Below, piece by piece: positions 39,392-61,754 of a stretch of 64,000 bases of DNA. Positions within the stretch are counted from its first letter, which is position 1. Each line of letters starts with the position of its first letter. Origin of the DNA: Azolla caroliniana (lineage: Eukaryota > Plantae > Polypodiophyta); NCBI GenBank assembly GCA_043228905.1, contig JBHGNT010000013.1, positions 20,088,001-20,152,000 of the forward strand. Reading direction: 5' to 3'. The notes beneath the pieces are model-generated. The model was not told the DNA's origin. It did no database searches and saw nothing but the letters and a program-made list of their open reading frames with translations. A program made the position numbers and the translations under genes.

Positions 39392-39460
39392 GTTAATGTA
39401 ATGGTAAGGTTGGGGTTTGTCAACGTGGAGGTGCAGAGTTCGAATCACGCCCTGCGTAGT
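39392..39460 (+). promoter_or_regulatory. tRNA-like A-box/B-box cassette inside the LTR, antisense to the element (second copy about 45897-45965)
   Basis: TAATGTAATGG..TTGTCAA (Asp-like anticodon loop)..GTTCGAATC at tRNA spacing; stems degenerate. Confidence 0.55.
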
Positions 39461-39671
39461 AGTGAGTATTTCCATTTTTTTTTACATTTATGTCTCTTTA
39501 TCCGGCTCTTCCTTGCCGGTATGCCGTTTTCTTCCTTGCCGGTATGCCGTTTTCCTCCTTGCCGGTATGCCGTTTTCCTCCTTGCCGGTATGCCGTTTTC
39601 TTCCGGTTGTCACCGAGCACTCCATTCTCTATCCGGAGGGACAAAAATATAATTTCCACATAGTGTGCAAC

Positions 39672-42600
39672 CTACACTACGACACTCGCCCCCTCCAAAC
39701 CCGCACATCCTCCGGTATGTGCCGAAGTTCTTGATTCTTCGTATCCGTCTTCATCCGAAGCTTCCTCCGATTCTCCCCTTATGTCGACTATGAGTTGTAA
39801 TCCACTTTCTTCGCTTCCCGCATCATTGTGGTCTTCGTCCGATTGCTCCTCGTTGTCGGCCTCGACTTGGATCACATAAGGTTTGTCGTCGGTCCGCTTC
39901 TTGAAAATCTTCACCCGCTTCCCGGCTATAGGCACTCGTAGTATTGTTCCATCCAACTCGGACAGTCGGTACGTCCCGTTGTCGAAGACCTTCCGAACCT
40001 CGTACGGCCCGAACCACCTTTTCGCGAATTTCCGCATCGTTGTATGTTGATGGTCCAAGCTACTATCATAGACGATCACCCAATCTCCTTCTTCAATCCT
40101 CCTCGGTCGTAGTCGGTGCTTTGTGTCGAACCGGCTTTTGTTCCGGAACCGTGCTTCTTGTTGTCGGCGTGACGCTTCCGCTACATCTTTCGGTCTTCCC
40201 TCCAGTTGTCGTATCCGGACCGCTAGTAGTTCTTCCCGGCTCATCTCTTCCTTCCACGGTAGTATTGTCCATGTCGCGATTGCGGTTTCCGTTGGCATTA
40301 CCGGTGCTTGTCCGGTCATGAGTTCTGTCGGCATGTAACCGGTCACGGAGCTATGCGTCGTCCGATCTGCCCATAGTGCATACGGAAGCATTTGTGGCCA
40401 ATCCTTCACCCTTCCGTCACATGCCTTCGCAAGTGCTTTCACGATCGGACTATGTCCTCGTTCGATCTTCCCGTTGGCCTCCGGATTGTAGGCCGTTGTC
40501 AACGTTAACCGAACTCCATGTTTGGCGAAGAATCCCCTAGCTTTGTCCGAGTCGAGTTCTCCCCGGTCCGCAATCACTTGTCCTACGCAGCCGTACCTAC
40601 AAAACACTTCTTCCAAAAGAAATTGGCACACCGCGGCACACGTTTTCCTCCGAAGCGCTCGACCTTCAACTTGGTTTGTGAGATCTTCTCGAGCTAACAC
40701 CAAGTATTTCTTTTGTCCAATCCCGGTCGGCATAGCTACAATGTCGACCATCCACTTGAAGTTGATTGTCAGTGAGAATGTCGGATGCAGCTCATCTCGG
40801 TGTCGGACCCCGGAGTAGACTTGACATTTCTCGCAGCTTTCTGTGAACTCCGCGACATCTTTATACATGTTCTTCCACCAATATCTTTGCTTGATTTTCA
40901 CGAAAGTTGCCCATGTTCCTCGATGTCCAGCCCAATCGGATTCGTCGAACTCGGACATTATCCGGTTTCGTTGCTCTTTCGTCCCGACTACTCGAAGTGG
41001 TATCCCATCCGGTCTTTTCGGCGTCCTCCATATTAAACCGTTTTCCAAGAAGAACTTTTGGACTTGCCTCTTCTTCCTTCGGATCTCGGCTCTCCTTTCT
41101 TTATCATTGGTTGAATCCTCGACCTCTTGTAGCATCTTCCCGATCATCAAGGTTTCCCCCTCGTATTCTTCTTCCCGGAATTCTTGGATCACGTTCACTC
41201 GGCATATGTGTTCTGACGTGAAGTAGTCTTCGGAAACTTCTTCATTATCTGATTCGGTTATGTCGTCTTCAAACCGCGCCCTCGATAACATGTCCGCTAC
41301 CGCGTTGTCCTTCCCCGAGATGTGTCGAACCTCCGGATTAAGTGACTTGACATATGCAATCCACCTTAGCATAGCCACATCCGGTATCGTACAACACCGC
41401 ATCATCCCGAGTATCGGAAGACAATCCGTCTCGATCACCACTTCAGCTCCGATCAAATAATCCCGATCCGATTTTATCGCCGACACGACTCCCCACAATT
41501 CTCTTTTGACTTGTGCATATCCGCGTTGCCTTTCATTGAGGACCTTTGCTCCAAATCGGATCGGATACCGCGAACCATCCGAGTCGGCTTGATTGATGAC
41601 CCACCCGATACCGGTTGGACTTGTATCAACCGTTACTATGATTGGCCGCTCGTAGCTTGGCTTCTTAAGTGATTCCGCCCTCCATAGTGTCTTCTTGAGC
41701 TTCCTCATGGCTTTAGTGTGTTCCGGTTTCCACTCGAATTTCTTACCTTTCCGCAACAAGTGATAGAGCGGGTCCGCTATATGTGCATAGTGCGGAATCC
41801 ATATGTGATAGAATGCACACGCACCCAGAAACCTTCGGACTTCCGATGTTGACTCACATACTTCCTTCATAGCTTGAATCGCATCGATCTTTGTTGGTGA
41901 CGGTCTTCGGCCGTAGGGTCCACATAGATGTCCGACCACCAATATTTCTTCTTGCCCGAATGCCGATTTCTCCCCGGAAAGTGTTAGGTGCACATCTTCT
42001 AGCTTTCGCAACACTTTCTCGCAATCATGAATATGGTCGACCACGAACTTTCGGCATCCCCGATCATCCATAGTCTCATCTTTTTCTTCCACCGCGCATC
42101 CTTTCATCGGAATGTCATCTAGAAACGGCATCGTTATCTCCGGGATGCAATCTCGAAGCACCTTGTTCATCGCGTTCATCATATGTGCAACCGAGTTTGT
42201 CGCTCCTTGTGGTAGTGTGCACATTCAAACTAGTCCTATCGGTGTCCGCATGGTAGTGATGTCTCGGCTCTCCACGGCTAGTTGGAATTGGTCATACCCC
42301 GAGTATAGGTCCCCGATGGAGTATATCGCACGTCCGGCAAAAGCTTCCGCGAATTCGTCCACTATCGGACCGACTCCCGAGTTCCGGATCGTGACCTTGT
42401 TCACCGGTTGCAAGTCTTGGATGAATCGGAGTGACCCATTCTTCTTCGGAACCGTAAACCATCGATTTGAGTACGGAGCACTTGATGGTTCTAGAATCCC
42501 CATCGCCACCTTCTCCTTGAGCAAGTCGATGACTTTCGGAATATGCGCCCGTGGCACCGGAATCGGCTTCGGGTTCCACGGTACATGATCAATCGTGAAA

Positions 42601-43280
42601 ATCACCATCGGCTCCACTATCTTTGGATCAATGCATCCGATCTCCCTCGATGTGAACGCGAATGCTTTGCCATGTTGCTCCAACATCTCTCGAAACCGTT
42701 TTTCTTCTTCTTGTAAGAGGAACCCACCTCCACCGATCCGAAGTTTCTTCCGGGTCTCATCTGTGAAGGCATGTCCGATATCCACGGACTTCCGAAGTGT
42801 CGGATCTCCCGAGACTTCTTTCTTCTTTTGTTCGCTATCGGCGGGTAGTGGTCCCGCGGCCGGTTTCACCTTCTTCTCCACGGTCTTGTATTTCGTACTT
42901 ACCATTGCTTCTTCTTTGCGGAGCGCATCTGGCCCCATTTTCGCAACGATCTCGTACATCTCGACCGATTCCACCGGGACTACCCGGTTCCCTTGGCTTT
43001 TATCTTCCGCAAGCTCTTCAAGCCGTTGTAGTGTATTCCCATAGAACACTTCCTCGATCACTCCCACGATTTCTTCGTCTTCTTTTATTATTGATGCCGA
43101 CTGTAACTTATCCTCCACTTGTCGGTATTGTTTCTTCATTCCTCCGGTTACGGCCGTGTACGTAGATGCCCCATCCGGGCCGATTCGTACTTGTTTCGCT
43201 CCGAGAGTTTTCTTCCTGTGTGGGGTATCAGGGCTTCTCGGACTATCACTTCCCCACTCCGCAACAGTCCGCTTTAAAAA
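39672..43280 (-). pseudogene. RT-RNaseH-integrase of the Phygy-like element, one in-frame TGA at 42225-42227
   Basis: TLPQGATNSVA, PFLDDIP, VDTS, HISGKDNAVADMLSR, GHRG..CEKC, NGKIER, WFGPY. Confidence 0.93.
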
Positions 43281-45311
43281 TCCATTCTCACTTGGGACAA
43301 GAGTTCCCTCTTGTTCCTTTCGTGATTTGCCGGCACCGTTAGGAATTGGACGGATTTCCCTCCGTTTTGGCTCCGAATTCGCACAAAAGCCGCACCACTA
43401 TCGAGCACCTTCGTCTCCATCCGTGAAGCCGTGATAAAGGGTTGGCCGAGGATGACAGAATGTGAAACCTCATCCTGCACAAAGAAATTTTGGTCAATTT
43501 CGACATCCCCGATCTTTACCGTCATCCGGACAAGCCGCAAATAGGTCTTCTGTCGTTTTCGTGGCTGCCCGAATCTTCCATCCATGGTTGGTGTTTATAG
43601 GCCACTTCCCCTTTCGGTAGAACTCCTTGGACATCAAGTTGATCTCCGATCCGTGATCAATCAATGCTAGCACGGGTTCTTTGATGTTGCCGATTCGGAC
43701 CGGAGTCTCCGTAGTCGCACGTGCCCAGTGTGGCCTTGTATAGTGGGAGTTCGGAATTTCGCCTTCCACTTCGGTGTCGTTCATTGAAACGGTATTTGCA
43801 TTCACCCTTGGAGCATTTTCCTCCGTACTTTGTCTCTTCCTTTTCACGAGATCCACGAGAAGATCGTGAAACTCCTTCTTCGCTATTCCGAGTAGTTCCC
43901 GCAGCGAAAAATCTACCCGGCTATCCAAGATTCTTTCCTCGAACACTCTTTTCAAGTCGGTTTGTTGTTCTATGTCCGAGGCGAGCTTGAATGTCGGAGT
44001 CGCCTTTTCTTTTCCCTTACCTCCGGAGTTCCAGCTTCCCGGTATCTTCGATGGTCCGGCCGCATCCTCCATGCGCCGTCGTTTCTCGTCCACATACACC
44101 TCATGTAATTGACACAGGGCGTATATGCTATTCTTGTCGACAGGGCACTCCCATCCCGTAGCTTCCCGGACGCCTTCCGCGGTGTTTCGGATATCGTTGG
44201 AGTCGGTTTTCTCGGTGTTTCCTAGCACCTCCGGCCAGAAAGACGCCTTCGCTCCCGTTGACTCCCCGACACATATTCCCGCGGTTGTCGCATAGTTGCT
44301 TCTTGCCGCTAACTCCTCCTCGAGCACCTTCTTCATGCCGCCTTTCCGGAAGTTCGGTCGGAGTGGCTTCCGAGAGTCCATCGAATGAATCCGGTTTCCC
44401 TCGTAGTAGATGAGATCCCGTCGTAGCGCCTCCTTATGGTCGTCGCAATCCCTCCGATCGTGTTCGGCGCTATCGCACCATATGCACCGTCGATCCGTAT
44501 ATTCGGAGCTTTTGGGGCGGTCATCCGACTTCTTCACCATCGCGATCTTTAGATTCTCCATCTCCTTCAGCAGCTGCTCCACCGTAGATGCGTCGACTCC
44601 CTTCTCAGTCGTAATCTCCCGAGCCCTCGGTTGATGGTCTTCCAGTCCCGTTCTCGGTTTCGGAATCGGTTCCGAAACCCTCTTTTCTTCGTTGGCAAGC
44701 CATTGCCCCCTCTTCGTGTACCGCGCGACGATATCCCGCACGCTTTCCCATGTTTCGGTGAGGCCGCTTTCGGTGGTCGTGTCCTCAAGAAGCACTCCGA
44801 GATCTTTCCGGTCCCGGACGTCCACAGCTCGCAAAAACATGATGACTTTGTCCGGTGCAAGAATAGTTTGATCTCTCGCGGACAACCTCCCGAACCGACT
44901 TTCGAATGTCGAAAACACTTCGAGGACCTTCAGCCCCTTACCTGACGTTTCCACCCAATCCTCAAATCCCCTCCGCGTTGCCTTGGAGGAGTCCTCGATG
45001 GCAAACGTGGTCTTTAACGCCTCTTCGAATGCTTCCCACGTCGGATTTTGTTGTTGCAACCCGTGGATACTCCCTTGAAGCCCGTCGGTCGCCACCCGGT
45101 TAAAGGATGTCACTTGCAGTCCTTCCGAAGCCCGGCACCGGAGCATCTCCGCCTTGTAGTCCTGCAAATATCGCGACACATCCTTACCATTAAATTGCCC
45201 GTTGCGTTGCACGAGCCGCTCTACTGATGCCGAAATCTCCGACATCGTGCGTTGTTCTTGAAGCATCCGTTCGAACATCGACATCATATTGTTAGCTTGT
45301 TGAGCCTCCAT
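43274..45311 (-). pseudogene. gag-protease of the Phygy-like element, frameshifted near 43520
   Basis: CIWCDSAEHDRRDC zinc knuckle; ALIDHGSEIN protease site; VILGQPF lies in a different frame. Confidence 0.85.
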
Positions 45312-47829
45312 CTCCTTGCCACCCGTCTTCACGTCGGGTTCACCAACTGTGTCGTGCCTTTCGGCTCCGGATCGTTGCGTGAGTCGGGTGGGAACCACAG
45401 AGGTCTTGGACTAGGAGAAAGAAGTTCGTGAGATAGAGATTAATTATGAGTAAATAGCAAAGAGAAAGATAAGAAACTCGTGAATCACACGAGTATACTA
45501 TATTAATTGGTACTTAGGGTGTTAAGAGAGAAGTAGATGTATAAATCGTGAATCCCACGAATAATTTTTGTATTGATTAATTCTTAATCCAAATAATCAA
45601 CAACCCTTTATATATTTCTCTCCTCCTTATATAAGGAAGGAAGAGCTAAGCATGGCTTCATGCTTTTTTTTACAAAAAGTGTTCATGTCCACTAAATGTG
45701 CATGTGATGCTTTTTTTATTTCCTAAGTATAGGGCTCATGCACGCTAGATGTGCATGAGTTATTTTTAGTGTCTCGTGTTTTTTTTTTTTCTTCTTTTTT
45801 ATATATTAAAAAAATACACGATTTACCTTTTAATAAAGGTATGCATAAATAAAGGTCTTATACGTATTAAATCTATATTTAAAACACTTAAGATAAGTTA
45901 ATGTAATGGTAAGGTTGGGGTTTGTCAACGTGGAGGTGCAGAGTTCGAATCACGCCCTGCGTAGTAGTGAGTATTTCCTTTTTTTTTACATTTATGTCTT
46001 TTTATCCGGCTCTTCCTTGCCGGTATGCCGTTTTCTTCCTTGCCGGTATGCCGTTTTCCTCCTTGCCGGTATGCCGTTTTCTTCCGGTTCTCACCGAGCA
46101 CTCCATTCTCTATCCGGAGGGACAAAAATATAATTTCCACATAGTGTGCAACCTACACTACGACAACGGGACCCAACGACACAAGGTAGCGGATCGGGAG
46201 TCGGTAAGACGGGCGGACGAAGTGCAAAACCCTCACCGGCCGGTTACGGTCTCGGAAGTAGCCGGTAGGGCGAACACGAGGAGGTGTGTCGGGCCGGGAA
46301 GGCACGCCTGGGACGGAACAAGAGTCTCGCAAGTGGCCATCGTGGGCCGGATCGAAGCGTGACTACGGGACAGTGTTCGGCACGGGCGGTGCCGAGCGAA
46401 GGATGCGAAAGACGGCACAAGAGAGGTGTCGGGAACGAGGTGACAAGTGCCTAGTGGACTGCACAGGGTCGGATTCAAGGGATGGCAAGAGAGGCTGAAG
46501 GAGGATCCTCCACACTCGCTTCGTAGATCTCGGGAGCTCCGTCGAAGTAGCGAAGACTGACACGGCAAGCTCGGGGGTGACAAGCTGGTGGGGGCGAGGG
46601 GACGATGGCAAGCGGAAGACTCATGACCTATTGCAGCAGCACGAAGACGGGAAGGGCCAAGCGGGCTACTACGGGGTGTTCCTCGGATGCAAAGGACACC
46701 AGTATGCGGGTGAGCGGCGATGCACGATCTGGCCGGAAAAGGGGCCGACAAGGCGTGCAATGAACCGGAGTGCGATACAGGCAGTGCCAAACAACGGACG
46801 AGGGTATGTGGCACACGGAGGTGCCGGAGCGGAAAGGCAAGCGCGGAGATAGGTTGCGCGGTTCGGAGGTAGCGCGGAGAAGGCCGAAAAGGGATCCTCC
46901 ACACCGTTCCGGAGACCATGGCGGTTCGAGCCGACGCGGCGATGTAAGACCATGGAGAAGGAAGGTGGCGGCGAGAGGACGAGGGCATACGACGGGAGCG
47001 GGGCGTTCATACGGCCGAACAAGGGCCAGCGAGGTATGCGTACTACGGAGATCGCGGCAGAGGATCCATCAACGGGTCGAACGAGCCTACGGGGAGGTAA
47101 GCGCGAAGGAAGAATCGAAGCCGACGGATCAAACCAGCAACGAGCCGAGATGCGGATCACGGAAGACCGGTTTCTCACCGGCCGAAATCTCTCACCCTTC
47201 AACCAGATTTGGCACGTACCGGTGGACGTGCAGTTAGGTGGGGGCGGATGTCGTGAAGAATTTCGGCCAGAGGCGGAAACCGGGAAACATTGGCTACATC
47301 GGCGGGGTGCAGCGTGTGTGCTCACCCTTGTACATTTAGTGTGAATAACGAGGGCGCCTTTATGGCACCGAAGAGTAGTCAAGTCAAGACAGACGATCCC
47401 ATGTAAGTCGGGATTTATCCCACATTGTAACGCATCCCTCTCCTTGTTCTATAAAAGGAAGGCAGCGGCCTTTGTGAAAGGGTTGCCCATTTTGCGTTAG
47501 AGGGTATACCGTTAGTTTAGGGTTAGTTATTCTTCTTCTTCTTCTTCTTCTTCTTCTTCTTCTTCATGTTCGCTTAGGGTTTGCTTTAGCTCGGCCTCCT
47601 GGGCAAGACCCCGCTCGGCGCAACGAGCCGAGAGCTCCCCGACGGCGGCTTGACAATAATCGACTGTCGTAACCTACCTTGGTCCGGCTCGATGCCGGGA
47701 ATGTATTCTTCCTTTCATATATACATACATATACGTTTGCGTCTGTCTGTGTATATTCGCGTCTTTGTTGGTGTCGGGTGCTTCCCCTTTCCTGCATTTC
47801 CTGTACATAAGGGCGTGAGTTGGGTTGGC

Positions 47830-48160: not shown

Positions 48161-50398
48161 AGAACGACCCACTAGGCTGAATCAGAGATTCGACAAACAA
48201 TCGAACTCGATCAAGCCGACAATACACCTGCCAACTCTGTATCAGTAGGAGGTCCACTAGTCGAACTCGAAGACAAAGCAAAACTAACAAGAGTCAAAAA
48301 AGGCAAAGTCAACAAGGTGTGAGCCGGAATCGACAGAATCGATCCGACCCACACACATAAGGCCAAACGGAAAAACAGAACCAAGTTGGCTAAGACTTCT
48401 ACCTCTAAGTCAACTGATCCCGAAGAAGGGGAGGATGCCCTAACATCACTGAAATCCTACTACAAACAGTTCAAGTAATACCAATTGGTCGGTCGAGCCG
48501 ATTGAAGAGTTCGAACCCACAACATCGGCACCCAGGAGATCCGGACAAGTTAAAAGGCCCATAGAGTTTTATCAACCAGGCCTCGACTATGTCAACTACA
48601 CGGATGCAAGTGAACCAAGTACTTACGAAGAAGCTATAGCTGCACCTAATGCGGTCACATGGCTACAAGCCATGCAATCTAATATGGACTCGATTCATCA
48701 GAATCATACATGGGAGCTGGTCGAACTACCAGTCGGGAGAAAGTCATTACCCTGCAAATGGGTCTTCAGATACAAATATGTATCCGACTCAAAGAAGCCC
48801 AAGTACAAAGCCTCAGTTAATCATGAAGGGATTCAAACATGAACATGAGGTCAACTATGATAAGATATTTTCTCCAGTAGTCAAGATGGCCACCCTTCGG
48901 CTCCTACTTGGGGTCGTGGCGACAGAAGACCTAGACCTCAAGCAGATGGATATAAAGACAGCATTCCTACACAGAGATCTGGAAGAAGACATTTACATGT
49001 CTCAACCGGCAGGCTTCACGACGATGGGGAAGGAAAGTCACCTCGTATGTCATTTGAAGAAAAGCCTTTATGGATTAAAACAAGCATCAAGGATGTAGTA
49101 TCAGATGTTCGACACCTACATCATGCAGCTTGGATACCGTCGATCTAACTCCGACCCATGTATGTATGTTCGGTAACTGGCCAACAAGTCCAGGATCTAT
49201 CTGATCCTATATGTTGATGACATGCTCATTGTAGGGAGCAATCCAGCAGAGATCGGAAACCTAAAGCGAAGCCTTCACGACAAGTTCGCGATGAAGGAAC
49301 TAAGACAAGCCCGACACACACTAGGCATGAGGATCAAGCGAAATCGGACGAAAGACTCTCCGACTCTCCCAATCCGACGTCACCCACAAAGTGTTGAACA
49401 CTTCAACATCAAGAATGCAAAGCCAATACCAACACCGCTTCCAACATAAATCTGACTATCAGACAGAGACTCTCCTTCGATAGATAAGGAAAAAGAGCTT
49501 GCCTATGCCGTAGGAGTCGTCAACCACTACATGTCAAACCCAGGACAGAAGCATTGGGAGGCCATCAAGCACATCTTCATGTACCTGAGAGAGATCGAAG
49601 ATGCACAACTGACTTTCAAATCGTCAAAATCAACCAAAGTCAAAGGCTACACCGACTCAGACTATGCCGGAAATACCGACAATCGAAAGTCGACATCATG
49701 CTACATCTTCACCTATGGTGTCGGTGCCATATCATGTCCGAGGTTGAAGCTTCAAGAGTGCTCGACTCTATCTACCACAGAAGTCGAGTACATAGCAGCA
49801 TCAGACACAACGAAGGAAGTGATCTGGTTACACCAACTAACTTTTGACTTCTCGACCATGAGCCGAATCGATCGATCAGCACTGACCATCTATTGCAACT
49901 CACAGAGCGTAATACACCTCATTCAAAATCTAGTCTATCATGCGAAGACAAAACACATTGAGGTGTGGTTTCATCATATCTGGGAGCTAGTAAACGAGTA
50001 GAAGCTCGAAGTTCGGAAGATCAATACCAAGGTGAACATAGTTGATTGCCTGACGAAGCCACTCCCCTATCAACACTTCGGAGCACTAAGGACGAAGATG
50101 GGACTACAACAAGTGATCGAGCCAAAGGGAGCTGAGCATGGAGCAGAAGGTAATATGATCCAACTGTTTCGGACAAACCGATCCGAACAACTAGGCTAGA
50201 TATTTATTCTACCTCTGTCGAGTCAGTTATACACTAACTGACTTCTACTATAAATTTAGATCAACTTTGTAATCTAAGTTTACAAGAGAGATAACCCCAA
50301 TCACTTGCACATGTATGAAAGAGTAGTACTTTTACGGGGGAGTTTGCTGGCATAAAAGGCCGACTCCGATTACTTTTTCCTTCCTAGTGTGAACACGT
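48161..50398 (+). mobile_element. Degenerate Ty1/copia 3' part (RT, RNase H, PPT, start of 3' LTR)
   Basis: EPSTYEEA, CKWVF, QMDIKTAFL, LKKSLYGLKQ, YVDDML, GYTDSDYAG..RKSTS, KTKHIE; many stops; PPT gggggag at about 50336. Confidence 0.92.
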
Positions 50399-50409
50399 TG
50401 TCGCGTTAC

Positions 50410-50485
50410 TGTCATGATATGGCAAGACTCGAACCCATGACCTTAGGTTATATGGGTCGAGCTCTTGACCATTAGACCATCTATT
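50410..50485 (-). promoter_or_regulatory. tRNA-like A-box/B-box cassette at the start of the chromovirus LTR, antisense (also at 52206, 57434 and 61337)
   Basis: Minus strand TGGTCTAATGG (50479-50469) and GGTTCGAGTC (50435-50426), 45 nt from T8 to G53 as in tRNA. Confidence 0.7.
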
Positions 50486-50707
50486 GTAATACATAGGATA
50501 TTATTTTCATTTATATTTTATTATAGGAAATTAGTGTATATTCCATATTTCTCTAGAACATTCTAGAAGCTTCAGGATTACTCCGGAAAACACTATAAAA
50601 GAGGGCACTAGGCATTATGTTGAACCAAATTGGTTCAACGCCAGTCTTAAGCCTTTTAGCCACCGTTGTATATTCTCTTCATATAATAAATATCTTTCTT
50701 ATCATCA

Positions 50708-50742
<35 letters not shown>

Positions 50743-50929
50743 TTTTCTCTCTGTCTCGCTCACTTCTTCCTTCTCTCGAAGAAGTTCCACACCTCTCATA
50801 GTACTAATCTTTCGTTTAGTACTAATTCCTTCTCTGTCTCAGTACTGTTCATGACAGTTTGAACAAATTTCCCTACCTTCTATCTCTCTCATTTCCTACT
50901 AATCTTTTATTCCTCTTTTCTTTCATCCC

Positions 50930-52081
50930 ATGGCCACTGTTAGCGCTGAAGAATATCAATCTGTTTTCTCGGAATTTCAAGGCTTGAAGGAGAAGTTCCA
51001 TGCTTTGGAACAAGAAAACCAATGGTTGCTGGGGGATCTTCAGCAAATCTCCTTAGAAAAGCAGCAAACGCAACAACAGCATGGGGAACTTGCGTTACGC
51101 GTGCAACAACTCGAAGCCACCATCGTAGCGATGCAACAACACGGGCCCGGAACACAAGGGATTCATAAAGAACCTAAGATTGGCCTTCCCACGAAGTTCG
51201 ATGGAACGCGATCGCAGTTTAGAGGGTTCCTTAACCAGGTACGATTAGTTATTCAAATGCATCCTTCCCGATATCCCACCGATGCATCACGAGTGGGTTT
51301 AGTAGGCACTTTGTTAAGTGGCTCAGCGTTGTCATGGTTCGCTCCACTATTAGAAAAGGAATCTCCGTTACTCAACAATTTTGAAGAGTTCCTAGGTGAG
51401 TTTAAAGCATGTTTCGGAGATACTGACAGCATCAGGACCGCAATCAACAAAATCCGGCGATTACGCCAAGGTGACGGTCCAGCCTCCGCATACGCTGCAG
51501 ATTTTCGCCTACTCGCCGCCGATATCCCTTGGGATGATCAAGCGTTGATGGAGCAATTCCGTTATGGTTTACGCAACGACGTCAAGGATTTACTCTTGAC
51601 CTTCCCCGAAGAGCCAAAGTCCTTAACAGAAGCAATCAGTCGCGCGGTGAGATGTGACAACCGCCTCTTTGAGCGACGTTCGGAACGACAGCTACAGATG
51701 CCGAGGGCAAGATCAGAGCCCACCTACGCCTCAGTGGTAGCAAGACCTTTTCCGAGGGAGTCATATAATGCGCCTCCAGTGAATACTCCGACTCCGATGG
51801 AGATTGACACTACACGTCGTCGAGGGCCATTATCCGAAGAAGAAAAGCAGCGACGTCGTACAAATCGACTATGTCTTTACTGCGGTGGACCAGGACATAT
51901 CGCAATAAATTGCCCCCATAGGCCAAGAAGACAGGTAAACCAAATAGTCACTAGTTCTAATTGTACTAAATCCGAGCCTATTTCAGTAGGGATATCTGAT
52001 AGTCCTAATAGTACTAATATCCCAGATCTAGCAAACAGATTTGATGTCCTTAGTCAGTTAGAAGAAGAGTTAAACGACTAA
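50930..52081 (+). CDS. Gag of the outer chromovirus
   Basis: EPKIGLPTKFDG, PMEID, CLYCGGPGHIAINC zinc knuckle. Confidence 0.93.
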   Translation: MATVSAEEYQSVFSEFQGLKEKFHALEQENQWLLGDLQQISLEKQQTQQQHGELALRVQQLEATIVAMQQHGPGTQGIHKEPKIGLPTKFDGTRSQFRGFLNQVRLVIQMHPSRYPTDASRVGLVGTLLSGSALSWFAPLLEKESPLLNNFEEFLGEFKACFGDTDSIRTAINKIRRLRQGDGPASAYAADFRLLAADIPWDDQALMEQFRYGLRNDVKDLLLTFPEEPKSLTEAISRAVRCDNRLFERRSERQLQMPRARSEPTYASVVARPFPRESYNAPPVNTPTPMEIDTTRRRGPLSEEEKQRRRTNRLCLYCGGPGHIAINCPHRPRRQVNQIVTSSNCTKSEPISVGISDSPNSTNIPDLANRFDVLSQLEEELND

Positions 52082-52695
52082 GTCCAGCCAAAATAGGAGC
52101 CGTTTGGTTGGACAGCCCTAGATCTGTGCAGCCCATTAGTGGTTCCATTCCCTCTAAGCAAGTTAGTGATGTGTTCGTAGCCCAAGTAATAGTTAGTACT
52201 AAAAGTGTCATGGCAAGACTCGAACCCATGACTTTATGCTACATGGGTCGAGCTCTTACCATTAGATTAGGAATTGTATTTTGTAGGATATTATTTTCAT
52301 TTATACTTTATCATAGAAAATTGATGTATATTCCAGATCTCTCTGGAACATTCTAGAAGCTTCAAGATTATTCCTAAAAACACTATAAAAGGAGGCACAA
52401 GGCATTGTTTTGAACCAAATTGGTTCAACGCCAGTCTTAAGCCTCTTAGCCACTTGTACTTATCTTTTCACATAATATATAGCCGCTGTCATCATCTCTC
52501 TCATTCTCGCTATCTCTCTCTCTCTCCTCTTCTCACTTCCTCTCTCGGGAATCTTACGTAGTCCCGTCCTCTTAGTACTGTTGTTCTTAGTACTAATTCC
52601 ATCTCTGTTTTAGTACTATTCCTGACAGTTTGAACCAATTTGTTCTCTAGCCTACTTGTCACTCTCCCTCATCCTCCTACCCTTTTCCCTATACT

Positions 52696-53853
52696 ATGGC
52701 TACTGTTAGCGCCCAAGAATACCAATCCGTTTTCTCCGAGCTACAATGCCTAAAAGAAAAGTTTGTTGCCCTGGAACAAGAAAACCAACGGCTGATAGGG
52801 GATCTGCAACAAATCGCTCTAGAAAAACAACAAACGCAACAACAACATGGGGAGTTAGCGTTACGGGTACAACAACTCGAAGCAGCGTTGCAACAACAAG
52901 GATCCAGTCCCCAAGGATTTCATAAAGAGCCCAAGATTGGACTTCCTGTGAAATTTGATGGAACGCGTTCGCAATTCCGGGGATTCCTTAATCAGGTACG
53001 CTTAGTCATCCAGATGCATCATTCCCGATATCCCACTGATGCATCTCGAGTCGGCCTAATAGGCACGCTACTTAGCGGCTCAGCCTTGGCATGGTTTGCT
53101 CCGCTTCTAGAAAAACAATCACCCTTACTTAATAACTTTGAAGATTTTATTGGTGAGTTTAAAGCCTGCTTTGGAGACACCGACAGCATCAGGACGGCGA
53201 TCAACAAGATCCGGCGATTGTGTCAAGGCGATCGTCCAGCCTCTGCCTACGCGGCGGATTTCCGCCTACTTGCTTCAGATATACCCTGGGATGATCAAGC
53301 ACTAATGGAGCAGTTTCGCTATGGCTTGCGAAACGATGTCAAAGATCTACTTCTAACTTTCCCCGAAGAACCAAAGTCTCTTACGAAGGCAATCAGTCGA
53401 GCAGTTCGATGTGACAACCGCCTTTTTGAACGGCGTTCAGAACGTCAATTACAGATACCACGCTCTAGGCCAGAGCCCACTTACGCCGCAGTCGTGGCTA
53501 AACCGTTTGCACGAGACACACCTCAAGCAAATACTTCGACACCGATGGAGATCGATACCATGCGTCGACGCGGCCCATTATCAGAAGAAGAAAAGCAACA
53601 ACGACGTGCCAATCGATTATGTCTTTATTGCGGTGGACCAGGACATATCGCCATCAATTGTCCCCATAGGCCAAGAAGACAGGTAAATCAAATCGTCGCC
53701 TGTACTAAACCCGAGTCAATTCTTCCCTTTGGAGTGTCTGATAGTATTAATAGTACTAATAGAGTGTCAGATAGTATTCATAGTACTAATAGCCCAAGTA
53801 TCTCAAATAAATTTGAAATCCTTAGTCAATTAGATGAAGAGTTAAACGATTGA
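52696..53853 (+). CDS. Gag of the inner chromovirus
   Basis: Paralogue of the outer gag with a CCHC knuckle. Confidence 0.95.
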   Translation: MATVSAQEYQSVFSELQCLKEKFVALEQENQRLIGDLQQIALEKQQTQQQHGELALRVQQLEAALQQQGSSPQGFHKEPKIGLPVKFDGTRSQFRGFLNQVRLVIQMHHSRYPTDASRVGLIGTLLSGSALAWFAPLLEKQSPLLNNFEDFIGEFKACFGDTDSIRTAINKIRRLCQGDRPASAYAADFRLLASDIPWDDQALMEQFRYGLRNDVKDLLLTFPEEPKSLTKAISRAVRCDNRLFERRSERQLQIPRSRPEPTYAAVVAKPFARDTPQANTSTPMEIDTMRRRGPLSEEEKQQRRANRLCLYCGGPGHIAINCPHRPRRQVNQIVACTKPESILPFGVSDSINSTNRVSDSIHSTNSPSISNKFEILSQLDEELND

Positions 53854-56800
53854 GTCCAGCCAAAATAGGAGCCATTTGGTTGGATAGCAGCCCTAGATCT
53901 GTACAGCCCATTAGTGGTTCCATTCCTTCCAAGCAAGTTAGCAATGTGTTCCTAGCCCAAGTCATTGTTAGTACTAAAAGTACTCCCCCAGTACCCGTCC
54001 TAGCACTTTTAGATTCCGGAGCTAATTCCTGTTTCATGGATCGAAATTTTGCCCAAGCTTCTCAGATATCCTTAAGAAAACTTCCTCGTCCCGCATCTGT
54101 AGTGGTCATTGATGGTCGTCCCATTGCTTCCGGGAATATTGTAGAAGAATCAGAACCCATTCAAGTTGTCCTAGGTAGTTTTGTGTGTATATTATCATTT
54201 AATATAATTAGTAGTCCAGAGCATCCCATTGTCCTAGGATTACCTTGGCTTGAATTACATAATCCAGCCATAGATTGGAGAACAAGAGAAGTCCGATATC
54301 GACCACCCCAAGAATCAACTCACCGAGTTTCGACCATTTCACTCCATCAACTACGCGAAGAAGGACCCAAGGAGGCAATGTTCCTATTTGCCATATCAGT
54401 ACATCCTTCTAGCACTATTAAGAAGGACTCCTCAATACAACTTCCGGCAAAATATCATCCTTATGCCGATGTATTTGACAAGGTAAAAGCCGGTACCCTT
54501 CCTCATCACCGTCCCTATGACTGTCCCATCGATTTACAACCAGGAACCGAGCCACCATGGGGACCAATTTACAACTTGTCACCCACCGAGTTAGAAGTCC
54601 TTCGAGCCTACATAGAGGAGAACTTGGCAAGGGGGTTCATCCGTCATTCGAAATCTCCGGCCGGTGCACCCATCTTCTTTGTCAAGAAGAAAGATGGCTC
54701 ACTTCGTCTTGTCATTGATTACCGCGGATTGAATAAAGTCACCATCCGGAATAGGTATGCACTTCCTCTTATATCAAGTCTTTTAGAGCGAGTTAATGGT
54801 GCCAAGTTTTTTACTAAAATCGACCTACGAGGAGCGTATAATCTTGTGCGGATCCGACCGGGAGATGAGTGGAAGACCGCTTTTCGCACGCGGTATGGGC
54901 ATTTCGAGTATACTGTTATGCCGTTTGGCCTAACCAATGCACCCGCAGTCTTCCAACACATGGCAAATGATATATTCAGAGACCTCTTGGATATCTGTTT
55001 GATCATTTATCTGGATGATCTGTTGATTTATTCGAAGACCCAGGAAGAGCACGATTCTCATGTACTATTAGTACTAAAGCGACTCCGCGAGAATGGTCTT
55101 TATGCCAAGCTAGAGAAATGTAGCTTTGACTGCAAGCAAGTGGAATTTCTAGGCTACGTCATCTCCTCAAAGGGCATCGCCATGGATCCAGCTAAAATCC
55201 AAACTGTACTAGAGTGGCAAATTCCACGGTCGGTACGAGATGTACAATGTTTTCTAGGCTTTGCTAACTTCTACCGTAAGTTTATACAGGATTACTCGAA
55301 GATTATTTTACCTCTCACACAACTTACGAAGAAGGGCCAAGCATTTCTTTGGTCCATCGAAGCAGATATGGCTTTTCGGCATCTTAAGAAAGCCTTTACA
55401 TCAGCACCGATTCTAGCTCATGTGGATACAAGCAAACCATTCATCATGGAGGCCGACGCATCAGATTTCGCCCTCGGTAGCATCCTTTCTCAACAAGGCG
55501 ATAAAGAAGAGTTGCATCCGGTGGCTTTCCATTCGCGCAAATTCAATGTCGCAGAAATCAACTACGAAATACATGACAAGGAGTTATTAGCCATCGTGGA
55601 TTCATTTGTACAATGGCGGCATTTCTTAGAGGGCTCTCCACATCAGGTCATTGTCTTTAGCGATCATAAAAATCTTGCTTATTTTCAGAACACTCGCGTA
55701 CTAAATCGACGGCAAGCTCGGTGGGCGCAATTCCTCACGCGTTTCAACTTCGAAATCACATATCGACCGGGGAAGCAACAAGGAAAAGCAGATGCACTAT
55801 CACGGCGTTCATATCTTGCACCTCGTCCTGGTGACGCAACATTTGATAATCAAAAGCAAGTAATCTTGGGACCAACACGATTGCACACGACGCGGATTTT
55901 TCACACCCCGATGGATTCACGGATTACCGATGACATACGTGCAACCTTGAAGACGGATAGTTTTGCTCAAGACATCCTGGCGCACATTGATACTTCTCGG
56001 GCATCCTGTTCTCAGTCTCAACAACCAGGTATTGACTACCGACAATTCGAATATCATGATGGTTTGTTATTCTTTAAAAAGCGCGTATATGTCCCCGATT
56101 GCTCCTGTCGCCTTCAAATCGTCCAACATTGTCACGACACCCATACGGCGGGACATTTCGGTAGTACCAAGACGTTGGAGTTAGTGCACCGATCTTTTTG
56201 GTGGCCCCACATGCGCCGTTTTGTCGACGACTACGTTCGGACCTGTGATGCTTGCTGCCGAGCAAAGATGCCACGACACCATCCATATGGCTTGTTGGAA
56301 CCTTTACCAATTCCAAGTAAGCCATGGCAGTCTATTTGTCTTGATTTTATTACAGATCTGCCGGTCTCGAAGGGGTTCGATGCTATCCTAACCATCGTCG
56401 ATCGATATACGAAGATGGCACATTTTGTGCCATGTACTAAAGCCATCACTAGCGAGGAAACCGCCGCTCTTGTTATGCGTGAGGTATTTCGGCATCATGG
56501 CCTACCAGAAAGTATTATCAGTGACCGAGGCCCGCAATTTGTCTCCAAATTTTGGCAGCATCTCTTCAGGATGCTCAAGGTCTCCTACAACCTCTCCTCC
56601 GGCTACCATCCTCAAACTGATGGACAGGCGGAACGAACAAACCAAACGTTGGAGCAATATCTCCGGTGTTTCCTGAGTTATCAACAGGACGATTGGGCCG
56701 AGATTCTCCACTTTGCGGAGTTTGCGTATAATAATGTTATTCACTCCTCGACTCGGGTCTCCCCATTTCTCGCTTATACCGGTTTCCATCCTCGCTGGTC

Positions 56801-57422
56801 GGTGATCGACACTCCGGAGCTACCTACCAACCCTCGTGCCGAGGACCATTTGGAGAGGCTACGCAAGATCCAGATGGATCTCTCTACTCACCTTCGTCAT
56901 GCTCAACACACACAGAAGACTTATGCGGATCGTCATCGGATTCCCTCCTCTTTTGCCATCGGAGATCAAGTATGGCTCTTACGTCGTCACATCAAGACTA
57001 CTCGACCGTGCGACAAGTTGGATTATCGACGACTCGGTCCTTTCCGTATTACGGGGAAGATTAATGATGTCACCTTCCGCCTGGATCTCCCTCCGCAGCT
57101 TCAGATACATCCGGTTTTCCATTGTTCTCTTCTTGAACCTTATAAAGCAAACACCATTCCCGATCGTGTGACACCACCGCCGCCCCCGCTGGAGTTGGAC
57201 GCCGGCCCGGAGTATGAAGTTGCTGCCATCCTCGATTCCAAACTTGTTCGCAACAAACTTTATTACTTGGTCGATTGGCTCGGTTATAGTCCGAGCGAAC
57301 GTACTTGGGAACCCGTCGAGAATGTTGCCAATGCACAAGATCTTCTTGCTGATTTCCACCGAAAGTATCCGGACAAACCCGGTCCGCAGTTAGCGCCGAC
57401 TCGTTCCACTCGTCGTCTTTAA
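53850..57422 (+). CDS. Pol (PR-RT-RNaseH-IN-chromodomain), in the -1 frame relative to gag
   Basis: 1190-aa open frame with LLDSGA, YLDD, DAS, HHCC, integrase core, GPF and chromodomain. Confidence 0.96.
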   Translation: MSPAKIGAIWLDSSPRSVQPISGSIPSKQVSNVFLAQVIVSTKSTPPVPVLALLDSGANSCFMDRNFAQASQISLRKLPRPASVVVIDGRPIASGNIVEESEPIQVVLGSFVCILSFNIISSPEHPIVLGLPWLELHNPAIDWRTREVRYRPPQESTHRVSTISLHQLREEGPKEAMFLFAISVHPSSTIKKDSSIQLPAKYHPYADVFDKVKAGTLPHHRPYDCPIDLQPGTEPPWGPIYNLSPTELEVLRAYIEENLARGFIRHSKSPAGAPIFFVKKKDGSLRLVIDYRGLNKVTIRNRYALPLISSLLERVNGAKFFTKIDLRGAYNLVRIRPGDEWKTAFRTRYGHFEYTVMPFGLTNAPAVFQHMANDIFRDLLDICLIIYLDDLLIYSKTQEEHDSHVLLVLKRLRENGLYAKLEKCSFDCKQVEFLGYVISSKGIAMDPAKIQTVLEWQIPRSVRDVQCFLGFANFYRKFIQDYSKIILPLTQLTKKGQAFLWSIEADMAFRHLKKAFTSAPILAHVDTSKPFIMEADASDFALGSILSQQGDKEELHPVAFHSRKFNVAEINYEIHDKELLAIVDSFVQWRHFLEGSPHQVIVFSDHKNLAYFQNTRVLNRRQARWAQFLTRFNFEITYRPGKQQGKADALSRRSYLAPRPGDATFDNQKQVILGPTRLHTTRIFHTPMDSRITDDIRATLKTDSFAQDILAHIDTSRASCSQSQQPGIDYRQFEYHDGLLFFKKRVYVPDCSCRLQIVQHCHDTHTAGHFGSTKTLELVHRSFWWPHMRRFVDDYVRTCDACCRAKMPRHHPYGLLEPLPIPSKPWQSICLDFITDLPVSKGFDAILTIVDRYTKMAHFVPCTKAITSEETAALVMREVFRHHGLPESIISDRGPQFVSKFWQHLFRMLKVSYNLSSGYHPQTDGQAERTNQTLEQYLRCFLSYQQDDWAEILHFAEFAYNNVIHSSTRVSPFLAYTGFHPRWSVIDTPELPTNPRAEDHLERLRKIQMDLSTHLRHAQHTQKTYADRHRIPSSFAIGDQVWLLRRHIKTTRPCDKLDYRRLGPFRITGKINDVTFRLDLPPQLQIHPVFHCSLLEPYKANTIPDRVTPPPPPLELDAGPEYEVAAILDSKLVRNKLYYLVDWLGYSPSERTWEPVENVANAQDLLADFHRKYPDKPGPQLAPTRSTRRL

Positions 57423-57869
57423 GGGGGAGATAGTGTCATGGCAAGACTCGAACCCATGACTTTATGCTACATGGGTCGAGCTCTTACCATTAGATTAGGA
57501 ATTGTATTTTGTAGGATATTATTTTCATTTATACTTTATCATAGAAAATTGATGTATATTCCAGATCTCTCTGGAACATTCTAGAAGCTTCAAGATTATT
57601 CCTAAAAACACTATAAAAGGAGGCACAAGGCATTGTTTTGAACCAAATTGGTTCAACGCCAGTCTTAAGCCTCTTAGCCGCTTGTACTTATCTTTTCACA
57701 TAATATATAGCCGCTGTCATCATCTCTCTCATTCTCGCTATCTCTCTCTCTCTCCTCTTCTCACTTCCTCTCTCGGGAGTCTTACGCAGTCCCGTCCTCT
57801 TAGTACTAATAGTACTGTTGTTCTTAGTACTAATTCCATCTCTGTTTTAGTACTATTCCTGACAAAAAG

Positions 57870-60800
57870 TACCCCTCCAGTAAATGTCCTAGCACTCCTA
57901 GATTCCGGAGCTAACTCTTGCTTTATGGATAAGAAATTTGCTCAAGCTCATAAGATATCCCTAAGAAAACTCCAGTGTCCAGCCTCTGTAGTAGTCATTG
58001 ATGGACGTCCCATTGCTTCTGGAAATATCCTAGAAGAGTCAGAGCCCATTAATATTGTCCTAGATAACTTAGCATGTGTAGTATCATTTAATATTATTAG
58101 TATCCCAGAACATCCTATAGTTTTAGGACTACCGTGGTTCGAGTTACATAACCCTGACATAGATTGGAGAACAAGAGAAATCCGGTGTCGACAAACCCAA
58201 GGGTCAACTCAGAAGATGGCAACCATTTCGCTACGTCAATTGCGTAAAGAAGGGCACAAGGAGGAAATGTTCCTCTTTGCAATATCAGTAAACCCCTCCA
58301 ACACCACTAAAGAAGAATCCACCATTCAACTTCCCGAGAAGTATCGTCATTACACCGATGTGTTCGATAAAGTACAAGCCAACACACTTCCTCATCATCG
58401 ACCGTACGATTGCCCCATCGATTTACAACCGGGAAAAGAGCCACCATGGGGACCGATCTACAATTTGTCACCAACCGAGCTGGAAGTCCTTCGGGCCTAT
58501 ATAGAGGAGAATTTGGAAAATGGTTTCATTCGGCATTCGAAATCTCCAACCGGTGCGCCCATTTTCTTCGTCAAGAAAAAAGATGGATCGCTTCGTCTCG
58601 TTGTAGATTATCGTGGCTTGAATAAGGTTACAATCAGGAATAGGTATGCTCTTCCCCTTATCTCAAGTCTTTTAGAACGGATCAATGGTGCCAGGTTCTT
58701 CACGAAGATCGACTTATGGGGAGCATATAACCTCGTACGGATCCGACCAGGAGACGAATGGAAGACCGCGTTTCGCACCAGATATGGGCACTTCGAGTAT
58801 ACTGTCATGCCGTTCGGCCTCACTAATGCGCCGGCAATCTTCCAGCACATGGCTAATGATATATTCCGAGATCTATTGGATGATTGTTTGATCATCTATT
58901 TGGATGATCTACTGGTTTATTCAAAGACCCAAGAAGAACATGATTCTCATGTACTATTAGTACTAAAACGACTTCGAGAACATGGTCTGTATGCAAAGCT
59001 AGAAAAATGTAGTTTCGGGTGCAACCAAGTGGAATTTCTCGGCTACATCATTTCATCAGAAGGCATCTCCATGGACCCAGCTAAGGTCAAAACGGTGGTA
59101 GAATGGCAGACTCCGCGTTCGGTACGGGATGTGCAATGCTTCTTGGGCTTTGCCAATTTTTACCGGAAGTTCATACAAGATTACTCAAAGATCGTTCTAC
59201 CTCTCACACAACTTACCAGGAAGGGACAACCGTTCATCTGGTCTGAAGAAACGGACATGGCTTTCGAGAGTCTTAAAAAAGCATTTACATCGGCTCCAAT
59301 TCTAGCTCATGTCGATTCGGAGAAACCATTCATTATCGAAGCTGACGCATCGGATTTTGCATTAGGGAGCATTTTGTCACAACAGGGGAATGATGAAAAG
59401 CTACATCCTGTGGCTTTTCACTCACGCAAGTTTGATGCCGCCGAAATCAACTACGAAATTCATGATAAGGAGCTATTGGCAATAGTGGATTCTTTTATGC
59501 AATGGAGGCATTTTCTGGAGGGATCCTCTCATCCAGTCACCGTATTTAGTGACCACAAGAATCTTGCCTACTTTCAGGATGCTCGTGTGTTGAATCGACG
59601 TCAAGCTCGGTGGGCCCACTTCCTCACGCGTTTCGACTTCAAAATTACGTATCGTCCAGGGAGGCACCAAGGGAAGGCAGATGCATTATCACGGCGTTCG
59701 TATCTAGCACCCCGTCCCGGCGAGCCAGCTTTCGATAACCAAAAACAAGTCATCTTGGGACTGGCACGACTACAAGCAACACAAATCTTTGACATGCCTA
59801 TGGATTCCCGCGTTATCGATACCATACGTGAAGACTTGAAGACAGATGCGTTCGCCCAAGCTATACTAGCACAAATTGATCCCTCTCGAGCATCGTGTTC
59901 ACAGTCGCAACCACCAGGTACGGACTATCGGCAATTCAAATACCATGATGGATTACTCTTCTTTAAAGAACTTTTGTATGTTCCTAATGGTTCTTGCCGC
60001 CTTCGAGTAGTACAAAACTGTCATGACACATATACAGCTGGGCATTTTGGTAGTACTAAAACATTACATTTAGTACAACGATCATTCTAGTGGCCCTGTA
60101 TGCGACAATTTGTCGAGGATTTTGTTCGGACTTGTGATACATGTTGCAGAGCAAAAATGCCAAGGCATCATCCGTATGGTTTATTAGAACCATTACCAAT
60201 TCCAAGCAAGTCGTGGCAATCCATTGCTCTAGACTTCATCACAGATCTTCCAGTCTCAAAGGGGTTCAATGCGATTCTAACGGTGGTCGATCGATATACG
60301 AAGATGGCTCATTTCTTGCCATGTACTAAGGAGATCTCTAGTGAAGACACTGCCGAAATTGTCATGCGTGAAGTATGTCGGCATCATGGACTCCTCGATA
60401 GTATCATCAGCGACCGTGGACCCCAATTCGTGTCAAAATTCTGGAAGCACCTTTTTAACATGCTCAAGGTCAGTTGTAACCTCTCTTCCGGCTACCACCC
60501 ACAAACTGACGGCCAAGCTGAACGAACAAATCAAACGTTGGAGCAGTATCTGCAGTGCTTTCTCAGCTATCATCAGGACGACTGGGCAGATATTCTCCAC
60601 TTCGCCGAATTTGCCTATAACAACTCTATCCACGCATCCACTAAAGTTACGCCATTTTATGCTTATACGGGATGTCACCCCCGGTGGAGTGTACTTGAAA
60701 ACCCAGAGGTGTCCACAAATCCGTGCGCGGAGGATCGTTTGGAGCGGTTACGCAAGATACAAGCAGATTTATCTACTCATCTCCAGCAAGCTCAACAAAC

Positions 60801-61329
60801 ACACAAGGTCTACGCGGATCGTCATCGACTTCCATCTAGTTTTAATATTGGAGATCGAGTGTGGCTGCTACGACGACACATCAAGACTACTCGCCCATGT
60901 GAGAAGTTGGATTATCGGCGATTAGGTCCTTTCCGTATTATTGGAAAGATTAATGATGTCGCTTTTCGTCTCAATCTACCTCCTCAACTTCGGATACATC
61001 CGGTGTTTCATAGTTCTCTCTTCGAACCCTACCACGAGAGCACCATCCCAGAACGTCTTATCCAACCTCCACCCCCGATCGAGCTTGAAGATGGGCCGGA
61101 GTACGAGGTTGCCGCCATCCTTGATTCCAAGATTGTTCGCAACAAGCTCTACTATCTAGTCGATTGGCTAGGCTATAGTCCCAGCGAACGTACTTGGGAA
61201 CCGATTGAGAATGTAACCAATGCTCGTGCTCTTCTTGAAGACTTCCATCGTCAATATCCACACAAACCGGGTCCTCAATCCAAGACGACTCGTGACACTC
61301 ATCGTTTTAAAGGGGGGATAGTGTCATGA
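57870..61329 (+). pseudogene. Pol of the outer chromovirus (PR-RT-RH-IN-chromodomain); N-terminus at about 52080-52205; TAG at 60088-60090
   Basis: LLDSGA, YLDD, EADASD, GHFG..CDTC, EYEVAAILD..YLVDWLGY..TWEP. Confidence 0.93.
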
Positions 61330-61754
61330 GGGATAGTGTCATGATATGGCAAGACTCGAACCCATGACCTTAGGTTATATAGGTCGAGCTCTTGACCATT
61401 AGACCATCTATTGTAATACGTAGGATATTATTTTATTATAGGAAATTAGTGTATATTCCAGATTTCTCTAGAACATTCTAGAAGCTTCAGGATTACTCCT
61501 GAAAACACTATAAAAGAGGGCACTAGGCATTATGTTGAACCAAATTGGTTCAACGCCAGTCTTAAGCCTTTTAGCCACCGTTGTATATTCTCTTCATATA
61601 ATAAATATCTTTCTTATCATCACTCTCTCTCTCTCTCTCTTTTTCTCTCTGTCTCACTCACTTCTTCCTTCTCTTGAAGAAGTTCCACACCTCACATAGT
61701 ACTAATCTTTCGTTTAGTACTAATTCCTTCTCTGTCTCTGTACTGTTCATGACA

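Follow-up and report, generated by a model that had tools for sequence, protein, structure and literature searches.

Two nested Ty3 elements in the Azolla window

The window analysed here is a stretch of 64,000 nucleotides of the Azolla caroliniana genome (assembly GCA_043228905.1, contig JBHGNT010000013.1, forward-strand positions 20,088,001 to 20,152,000), and positions are numbered from its first letter. It carries two nested Ty3 retrotransposons, an inner element (52206-57864) inserted in an outer element (50410-61754), and both have long terminal repeats (LTRs) that begin with an antisense tRNA-like module, which is the subject of this report. The inner element is 5659 bp long, is flanked by a 5-bp target duplication (52201-52205 and 57865-57869), and has LTRs of 422 bp (52206-52627) and 431 bp (57434-57864) that are identical at 419 of 422 aligned bases. 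Its gag frame (52651-53853) and pol frame (53838-57422) are open on the plus strand, and pol encodes reverse transcriptase (RT), RNase H, integrase, SH3 and a chromodomain with aromatic-cage residues. The LTRs of the outer element (50410-50856, 447 bp with TG...CA ends, and 61337-61754, 418 bp) agree at 410 of 418 bases; its gag frame on the plus strand runs from stop to stop at 50903-52081, and the rest of its pol with the chromodomain (57870-61329, plus strand), split off by the inner element, has an in-frame stop at 60088-60090. No target-site duplication was found at the ends of the outer element, and the outer element may be a recombinant.

Both elements have the Ty3 order of RT, RNase H and integrase with a chromodomain at the C-terminus, and inspection by eye placed Y, W and Y at the cage-type positions of both chromodomains. 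The site following the 5' LTR (50857-50870 in the outer element, with one mismatch, and 52628-52641 in the inner element) is complementary to the likely start of the R region (50627-50639 in the outer 5' LTR) and not to a tRNA. The polypurine tracts (PPTs) are normal. At the outer 3' LTR, the PPT region (61309-61336) includes a tandem duplication of 15 bp in which the end of the PPT and the start of the LTR are repeated (window 61315-61344, copies at 61315-61329 and 61330-61344). Assigned by these features, namely domain order, caged chromodomain and self-priming, both elements fit the Tcn1 clade of the chromoviruses (Ty3/gypsy). No relatives were found among viral contigs.

An antisense tRNA-like module opens all four LTRs

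At the start of each of the four LTRs stands a tRNA-like stretch in reverse complement, as the preliminary description of this DNA had stated. On the minus strand, the outer 5' LTR has its B box at 50425-50435 (LTR 16-26) and its A box at 50468-50479 (LTR 59-70), the score of the latter being reached by none of 1000 upstream shuffles; the outer 3' LTR has the two boxes at 61352-61362 and 61395-61406. In the inner element the B and A boxes lie at 52216-52226 and 52258-52269 in the 5' LTR, where the A box is weaker and has an A at tRNA position 10, and at 57444-57454 and 57486-57497 in the 3' LTR.

The boxes were scored with matrices built from host tRNA genes, 68 of the 78 distinct ones, which cover 17 isotype-anticodon types and include some organellar ones. 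The combined A and B score is 29.9 for the outer module and 25.7 for the inner one, compared with 14.4-35.6 (median 31.1) for the 78 host tRNA genes; the scores are partly circular because the same matrix framed the modules, while position, orientation and spacing are not. None of 200 dinucleotide shuffles per LTR reached the score of the module (maxima 15.0 and 19.6). The distance from G19 to G53 is 35 in the outer module and 34 in the inner one, and 33-35 in the host class I tRNA genes, which bears out the tRNA spacing claimed for the outer element. As in a type 2 RNA polymerase III (Pol III) promoter, A and B boxes thus stand at tRNA spacing.

Other claims of the preliminary description fared as follows. 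The B box is indeed identical in all four LTRs, and the anticodon-loop region differs; since the two elements are closely related (88% identical in RT-RNase H, and at 350 of 421 aligned LTR bases), a B box common to these two alone is weak evidence. That the module is not a primer-binding site (PBS) agrees with the self-priming site after the 5' LTR. The tRNA-like 3' end was said to fall at the LTR terminus, and this is true of the inner element, with tRNA position 73 at the end, and not of the outer one, where it lies about 5 nt inside.

The module cannot be called a tRNA gene, as ARAGORN predicted none in the window and only 2 of the 5 anticodon-stem pairs form; the Rfam tRNA model (RF00005) had no match at E<=10 in 50300-52700. 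Nor could one parent tRNA be named: among the 17 isotype-anticodon types sampled, the best candidates agree at 27-36 of 54 positions and are scattered over the isotypes. In both window elements the module folds not as a cloverleaf but as a rod hairpin of about 20 bp (z -3.0 to -6.5 over the two strands), a feature not recognised in the preliminary description. In the outer 5' LTR the hairpin spans 50420-50472, with arms at 50420-50439 and 50453-50472 and a variable loop in the middle. The module faces outward, about 160 bp upstream of a likely TATA box of putative RNA polymerase II (Pol II) function (50594-50601, plus strand, LTR 185), which points away from it and has no inherited change in the copies analysed below.

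The module in the genome and across the Tcn1-like clade

LTR families were scanned for A and B boxes by position and orientation, as the preliminary description had proposed, and the module was found in the same place and orientation across the clade. The own-genome survey covered 1.06 Mb of contiguous sequence with 52 repeat pairs. Of these, 15 that belong to a tandem array and 2 that were duplicates were removed; with the outer element added by hand, 36 rows were left. Five of the 7 self-priming rows score at least 24 at LTR 11-16, and the other two (family F) have the B box alone, at LTR 6. Among the 7 tRNA-Trp-primed rows, two have an antisense module (20.4 and 29.1) and two others have sense matches of 17-18.5 that are seemingly unrelated. 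The module was absent from all 15 rows primed by initiator tRNA-Met (iMet; 13 with a same-strand copia RNase H match, one of them nested, and one Ty3) and from the 7 remaining rows. In the whole 523-Mb genome, the exact 22-nt B-box arm of the window families has at least 2731 copies, and the control has 0.

The clade survey was anchored on the integrase-chromodomain end, which is independent of the module; 164 of 200 matches gave a 3' LTR start and fell into 42 clusters. In a tree of 37 rows, made of the best-scoring copy of each cluster with a long match and the inner element, own-genome and metagenome rows form a 19-row Tcn1-like clade (support 85/84). Within it 13 of 19 rows score at least 18; of the other six, L076 has the B box only, L228 scores 13, L088 was mis-started and really scores 31.1, and three are disrupted. 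None of the 18 rows outside the clade reaches 18 (maximum 8.3). The module is lost or broken in some copies (L075, L084, L089 and L192). Families about 55% identical in the C-terminal part of integrase differ in the middle of the module and both score like tRNA genes (29.9 and 31.1). In 16 of 19 modules the A box scores higher than upstream shuffles do (p<0.05), with distances of 32-35. When 15 modules were aligned with MAFFT, most of the invariant or near-invariant columns fell in the D-loop, the variable loop and the T-loop, which is also the pattern of tRNA promoters. The most widespread part is the B box, which is kept with the hairpin (families A, B and D), without the hairpin (C) and without the A box (F). 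The B box is the element common across the clade.

Two side observations concern these families. In the abundant, young and Tcn1-like L064/L076 family (e.g. G000:C12:7481769), the LTR start is a B box alone in a short terminal hairpin, with the A box weak or lost. At G000:C13:20169413 lies a copia element whose insertion point in a family A LTR is about 15 bp upstream of the A box; this single case recalls tRNA-gene-targeted insertion.

Inherited and tip changes in the module

For the conservation check, we took the first-listed 90 of 1810 LTR copies, recognised by an R-region pattern away from the module, together with the two window 5' LTRs, and one copy was dropped. A copy tree was built on 255 columns; changes in 1-2 copies were counted as tip changes and changes in 3 or more copies as inherited, and all p values are uncorrected. 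The background of the U3 region has 51 inherited and 147 tip changes. In comparison, the B box has 0 inherited and 14 tip changes (p 0.018). As its changes occur at the tips and none is inherited, the constraint acts on copies that later spread. CpG loss follows the same division, with 0 inherited events in the B box and 3 at an R-region CpG. The two hairpin arms together have 2 inherited changes, both at a bulge, and 38 tip changes (p 0.002), and the hairpin loop has 5 and 6. Neutral decay across the clade, which the preliminary description had named as what would refute its reading, is not what the B box shows, while the A box drifts, with 10 inherited and 16 tip changes. The same tree test on 55 copies of family F gave 0 inherited and 2 tip changes in the B box, which are too few changes for a test. 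It is likely that the module is under selection.

A second lineage and possible sources of the module

A short Ty3 element on the minus strand of the window (38846-46165) has a PBS that matches host tRNA-Trp and has no chromodomain in its two scanned frames; its Phygy label comes from the preliminary description, and features alone were compared. Its antisense A/B module lies about 210 nt inside the LTR (39394-39447 in the 3' LTR and 45899-45952 in the 5' LTR, both on the plus strand), with a T-run 27 nt downstream. With the T-run, this looks like a complete Pol III unit, and only one Trp-primed sub-lineage has such a module. The search anchor biases the scores of the 30 Trp-primed loci, and these were left out of the tests. 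Between the boxes, the family A and Trp-primed modules share 10-11 of 31 identities, which is near chance, so that separate capture is plausible; long divergence is also compatible with it. The presence of a module in a separate non-chromovirus lineage agrees with the preliminary description, and the convergent capture proposed there is plausible rather than proven.

A dispersed (GA)n-flanked repeat outside LTRs is 77-84% identical to the D/E module, which fits an exchange with a SINE-like (short interspersed nuclear element) repeat in either direction. In the 1.88 Mb searched, the A, C and Trp-primed modules had no free-standing relative. The (GA)n repeat is about 200 bp long and has a tRNA-like head, which by eye is faced by another tRNA-like module (L006:223-430, L279:301-440, L319, G000:C12 near 7419375 and G000:C13 near 20192200). 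Other high-scoring A/B modules occur in unassigned AT-rich repeats (G000:C6 near 14279600 and 14250882, C12 near 7449418 and 7406192, and C4 near 6297006), and are likely SINE-like or parts of DNA elements. Tandem clusters of tRNA-Trp 3' ends and tRNA-Lys genes were also noted (G000:C8:17796786-17823371, C16:4989495-5105657 and C5 near 17990000).

A proposed capture of a Pol III promoter as a TFIIIC site

The position and orientation of the module, the quality of its boxes, its spread over the clade, its absence from the control elements and the lack of inherited change in its B box are what was observed. The reading we prefer, as possible rather than probable, is that the module is a captured type 2 (tRNA-type) Pol III promoter, kept as a binding site for the Pol III factor TFIIIC beside the Pol II promoter. 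A SINE-like head with such a promoter would have been captured at the outer edge of the LTR, facing backward. Its B box would bind host TFIIIC, and the bound site may keep the divergent Pol II promoter, which lies about 160 bp inside, open at its upstream edge, since the module stands at the edge where silent chromatin would enter from the flank. The rod hairpin would be a secondary feature of some families. Barrier activity is known for tRNA genes and for B boxes or TFIIIC sites. The chromodomains of both elements have cage residues, and heterochromatin targeting has been suggested for the moss chromovirus RLG1 (PMC7466625).

Several points weigh against a promoter kept for TFIIIC. Plant tRNA genes have a conserved TATA-like site upstream, and such a site, present in 3 of 4 window LTRs, is kept in just 4 of 91 copies. 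The B-box deficit weakens to p 0.077 when U3 111-184 by itself is the background, and among 131 other 11-nt windows 4 look as constrained as the B box. Taken whole, the A box shows no constraint: it drifts in spreading lineages, mostly by changes outside the hairpin arm, and at the near-invariant A14 a G stands in 23 or more of the 90 copies. The constrained footprint in the window families is the hairpin, which includes the B box: the arm without a box (44-57) has 0 inherited and 11 tip changes (p 0.04), and of the longest unchanged runs in LTR 1-211 (10-32, 89-104 and 43-57) two, 10-32 and 43-57, match the hairpin arms. After insertion the B-box CpG decays like a neighbouring CpG (6 and 7 events), so that there is no footprint of methylation protection once a copy has inserted, and 15 of the first 100 listed copies are decayed at this site. 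By eye, the LTR of Selaginella SM-Tcn1 has no such module, while its self-priming match is present. Finally, the tRNA genes of yeast are able to repress Pol II promoters close by, and the effect could therefore run either way.

Alternative explanations

Alternatively, the captured sequence may now work next to the PPT as a hairpin of the RNA or cDNA, likely with a role in replication (priming of the plus strand, strand transfer, packaging or integration), and its likeness to tRNA would be inherited. We regard this as unlikely, though it is the strongest of the alternatives. It draws on the z scores of the rod, on the low number of inherited changes in the arms compared with the loop, and on the constraint of the arm that lacks a box. 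The hairpin is significant in families A, B and D and in L196 and L200, and is borderline in E. Families A and D fold in a common register with changed pairs, 8 of 21 pairs are changed on both sides in 6 modules chosen for folding well (1-5 in slid controls), and in A and D the genomic-RNA strand folds equally well. However, there is no significant hairpin in family C, in several other G copies or in any of the 4 Trp-primed modules, all of which keep the boxes; the covariation term of RNAalifold is unfavourable (+1.75), and in real tRNAs 2-4 of the 6 register pairs are already present. On these grounds a hairpin common to the whole clade was rejected. The hairpin function would also leave the tRNA likeness of unalignable families unexplained.

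It is less likely still that the module is a working Pol III gene, which would yield an antisense stem-loop RNA, probably as a decoy for small-RNA proteins or a regulator of the element. The promoter is complete with A and B boxes, and a CAA just upstream of the module is kept in 90 of 91 copies. The hairpin has the size of a microRNA (miRNA) precursor, and that of the inner element is more stable on the tRNA-sense strand (-29.0 vs -23.3). Foamy-virus LTRs yield Pol III hairpin RNAs (PMC3993851), and SB1 SINE RNA binds HYL1 (PMC2408557); the T-run of the Trp-primed module also suits such a gene. On the other hand, the first T4 run past the B box lies 650 and 1363 nt away in the two 3' LTRs and 23-975 nt away in 14 5' or solo copies. 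With no nearby fixed T4 in the A/B LTRs, a transcript would have no fixed end and its 3' end would differ at each insertion, and the lack of a nearby T4 terminator in the 3' LTRs argues against a defined RNA. The drifting A box, which family F lacks, the absence of strand preference in A and D and the loss of the TATA-like site all speak against a gene of this kind.

A neutral relic, in which SINE-like heads were captured recently, perhaps repeatedly, and young families have not yet lost them, appears improbable. The identity of the (GA)n-flanked repeat with the D/E module makes recent exchange possible, and the lost or broken modules in four copies and the modest test statistics are as a relic would have them. 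But the place and orientation of the module are constant across the clade, free-standing relatives of the A, C and Trp-primed modules were missing from the sequence searched, and spreading lineages never lose the B-box CpG but do lose an R-region CpG. It is very improbable that the tRNA-complementary genomic RNA anneals a host tRNA or fragment to aid strand transfer, as the PBS-like orientation next to the PPT might suggest, because the elements self-prime, the hairpin would hide the site, no parent tRNA stands out among the 17 isotype-anticodon types sampled, and the Trp-primed module is no nearer to tRNA-Trp than to others.

Other observations

Window positions 1-20350 hold a near-identical tandem array with a unit of 4879-4881 bp and a cytochrome P450 frame, either a recent amplification or an assembly artefact. 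Ty3 elements at G000:C12:7450763, C17:9233710 and C4:6158020 have no purine tract, an inverted primer-site-like sequence before the 3' LTR, and no A/B module.

Relation to known systems

LTRs with tRNA-derived sequence are in print for Helenus/TRIMp3 (Kojima 2024, PMC10886601), where the boxes are kept, the tRNA structure is lost, SINE capture is proposed, there are several origins, and one case is from a plant (Selaginella). The elements here share the tRNA-derived LTR sequence, which lowers the novelty of our finding. Helenus elements, however, are non-autonomous and under about 1.3 kb, whereas the elements here are autonomous, 5.3-5.7 kb long, with gag and pol open in the inner element and a likely Pol II promoter kept; and in the Helenus LTRs examined the boxes have sense orientation, with a proposed role in making the RNA of the element itself, while those here are antisense at the outer edge of the LTR. 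The same paper mentions that 'not a few' Repbase LTRs match tRNA and analyses only TRIMs (terminal-repeat retrotransposons in miniature), so that autonomous cases may already have been seen. The TRIMs Cassandra and Ajax likewise have a Pol III promoter of a small-RNA gene in the LTR, but theirs is of 5S type in non-autonomous elements, and that of Cassandra transcribes Cassandra itself (PMC10886601, PMC12786077).

Foamy viruses (Kincaid 2014, PMC3993851) are autonomous like the elements here, with A/B-box Pol III units in the LTR that form hairpins; unlike the A/B LTRs here, theirs have terminators and demonstrated miRNA products. In SB1 SINE RNA (PMC2408557) a tRNA-derived head also forms an extended stem-loop, as a free-standing Pol III transcript rather than part of an LTR.

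The conversion of a tRNA-derived head to an extended rod is also known from BC1, again a free-standing Pol III transcript. The B box here, as a possible boundary, resembles the barriers formed by tRNA genes and TFIIIC, which are features of the host, whereas this one is borne by an element. The U3 of HIV-1 has an antisense likeness to tRNA too and is held to aid strand transfer; it concerns the primer tRNA, which self-priming elements do not have.

The Tcn1 clade chromoviruses in the literature (PMC6317226, PMC2864245) share with the window elements self-priming, a caged chromodomain, the gag-pol layout and a similar R region, and a tRNA-like LTR start is unmentioned in the available text of both papers. 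Among plants, Tcn1-type elements are limited to mosses and club-mosses according to PMC6317226, and judged by that limit alone the host would likely be a moss. In the SM-Tcn1 sequence of PMC2864245 (supplement S3), we noticed by eye that the sequence after the 5' LTR is complementary to a stretch of the LTR, which makes a self-priming match; the paper itself says that such a match was not found. In the literature searched, with most subscription papers and the Repbase notes falling outside it, we met no account of such a module for autonomous Ty3 elements. The present case is set apart by an antisense module at the LTR edge of autonomous, self-priming chromoviruses, its clade-wide spread, and a second case in a non-chromovirus lineage.

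Implications

The results extend the capture of Pol III promoters from non-autonomous TRIMs to autonomous Ty3 elements, and the orientation opposite to that in TRIMs suggests a different job. If the hairpin function were true instead, the module would be a new replication signal of self-priming elements. How chromoviruses that land in heterochromatin continue to be expressed is an open question, for which the module offers a short, mutable cis element (an 11-bp box in a 20-bp stem). The exact B-box-arm copies, at least 2731 of them, could matter for the distribution of Pol III factors and for genome folding. We propose with low confidence that autonomous, heterochromatin-targeting elements may bring with them a TFIIIC-bound boundary at the edge of the LTR, derived from tRNA-type promoters by two or more captures, by which new copies would stay transcribable in silent chromatin. 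If true, this would be a self-insulating transposon at thousands of sites, and its copies would also make up a major group of the genome's Pol III factor sites.

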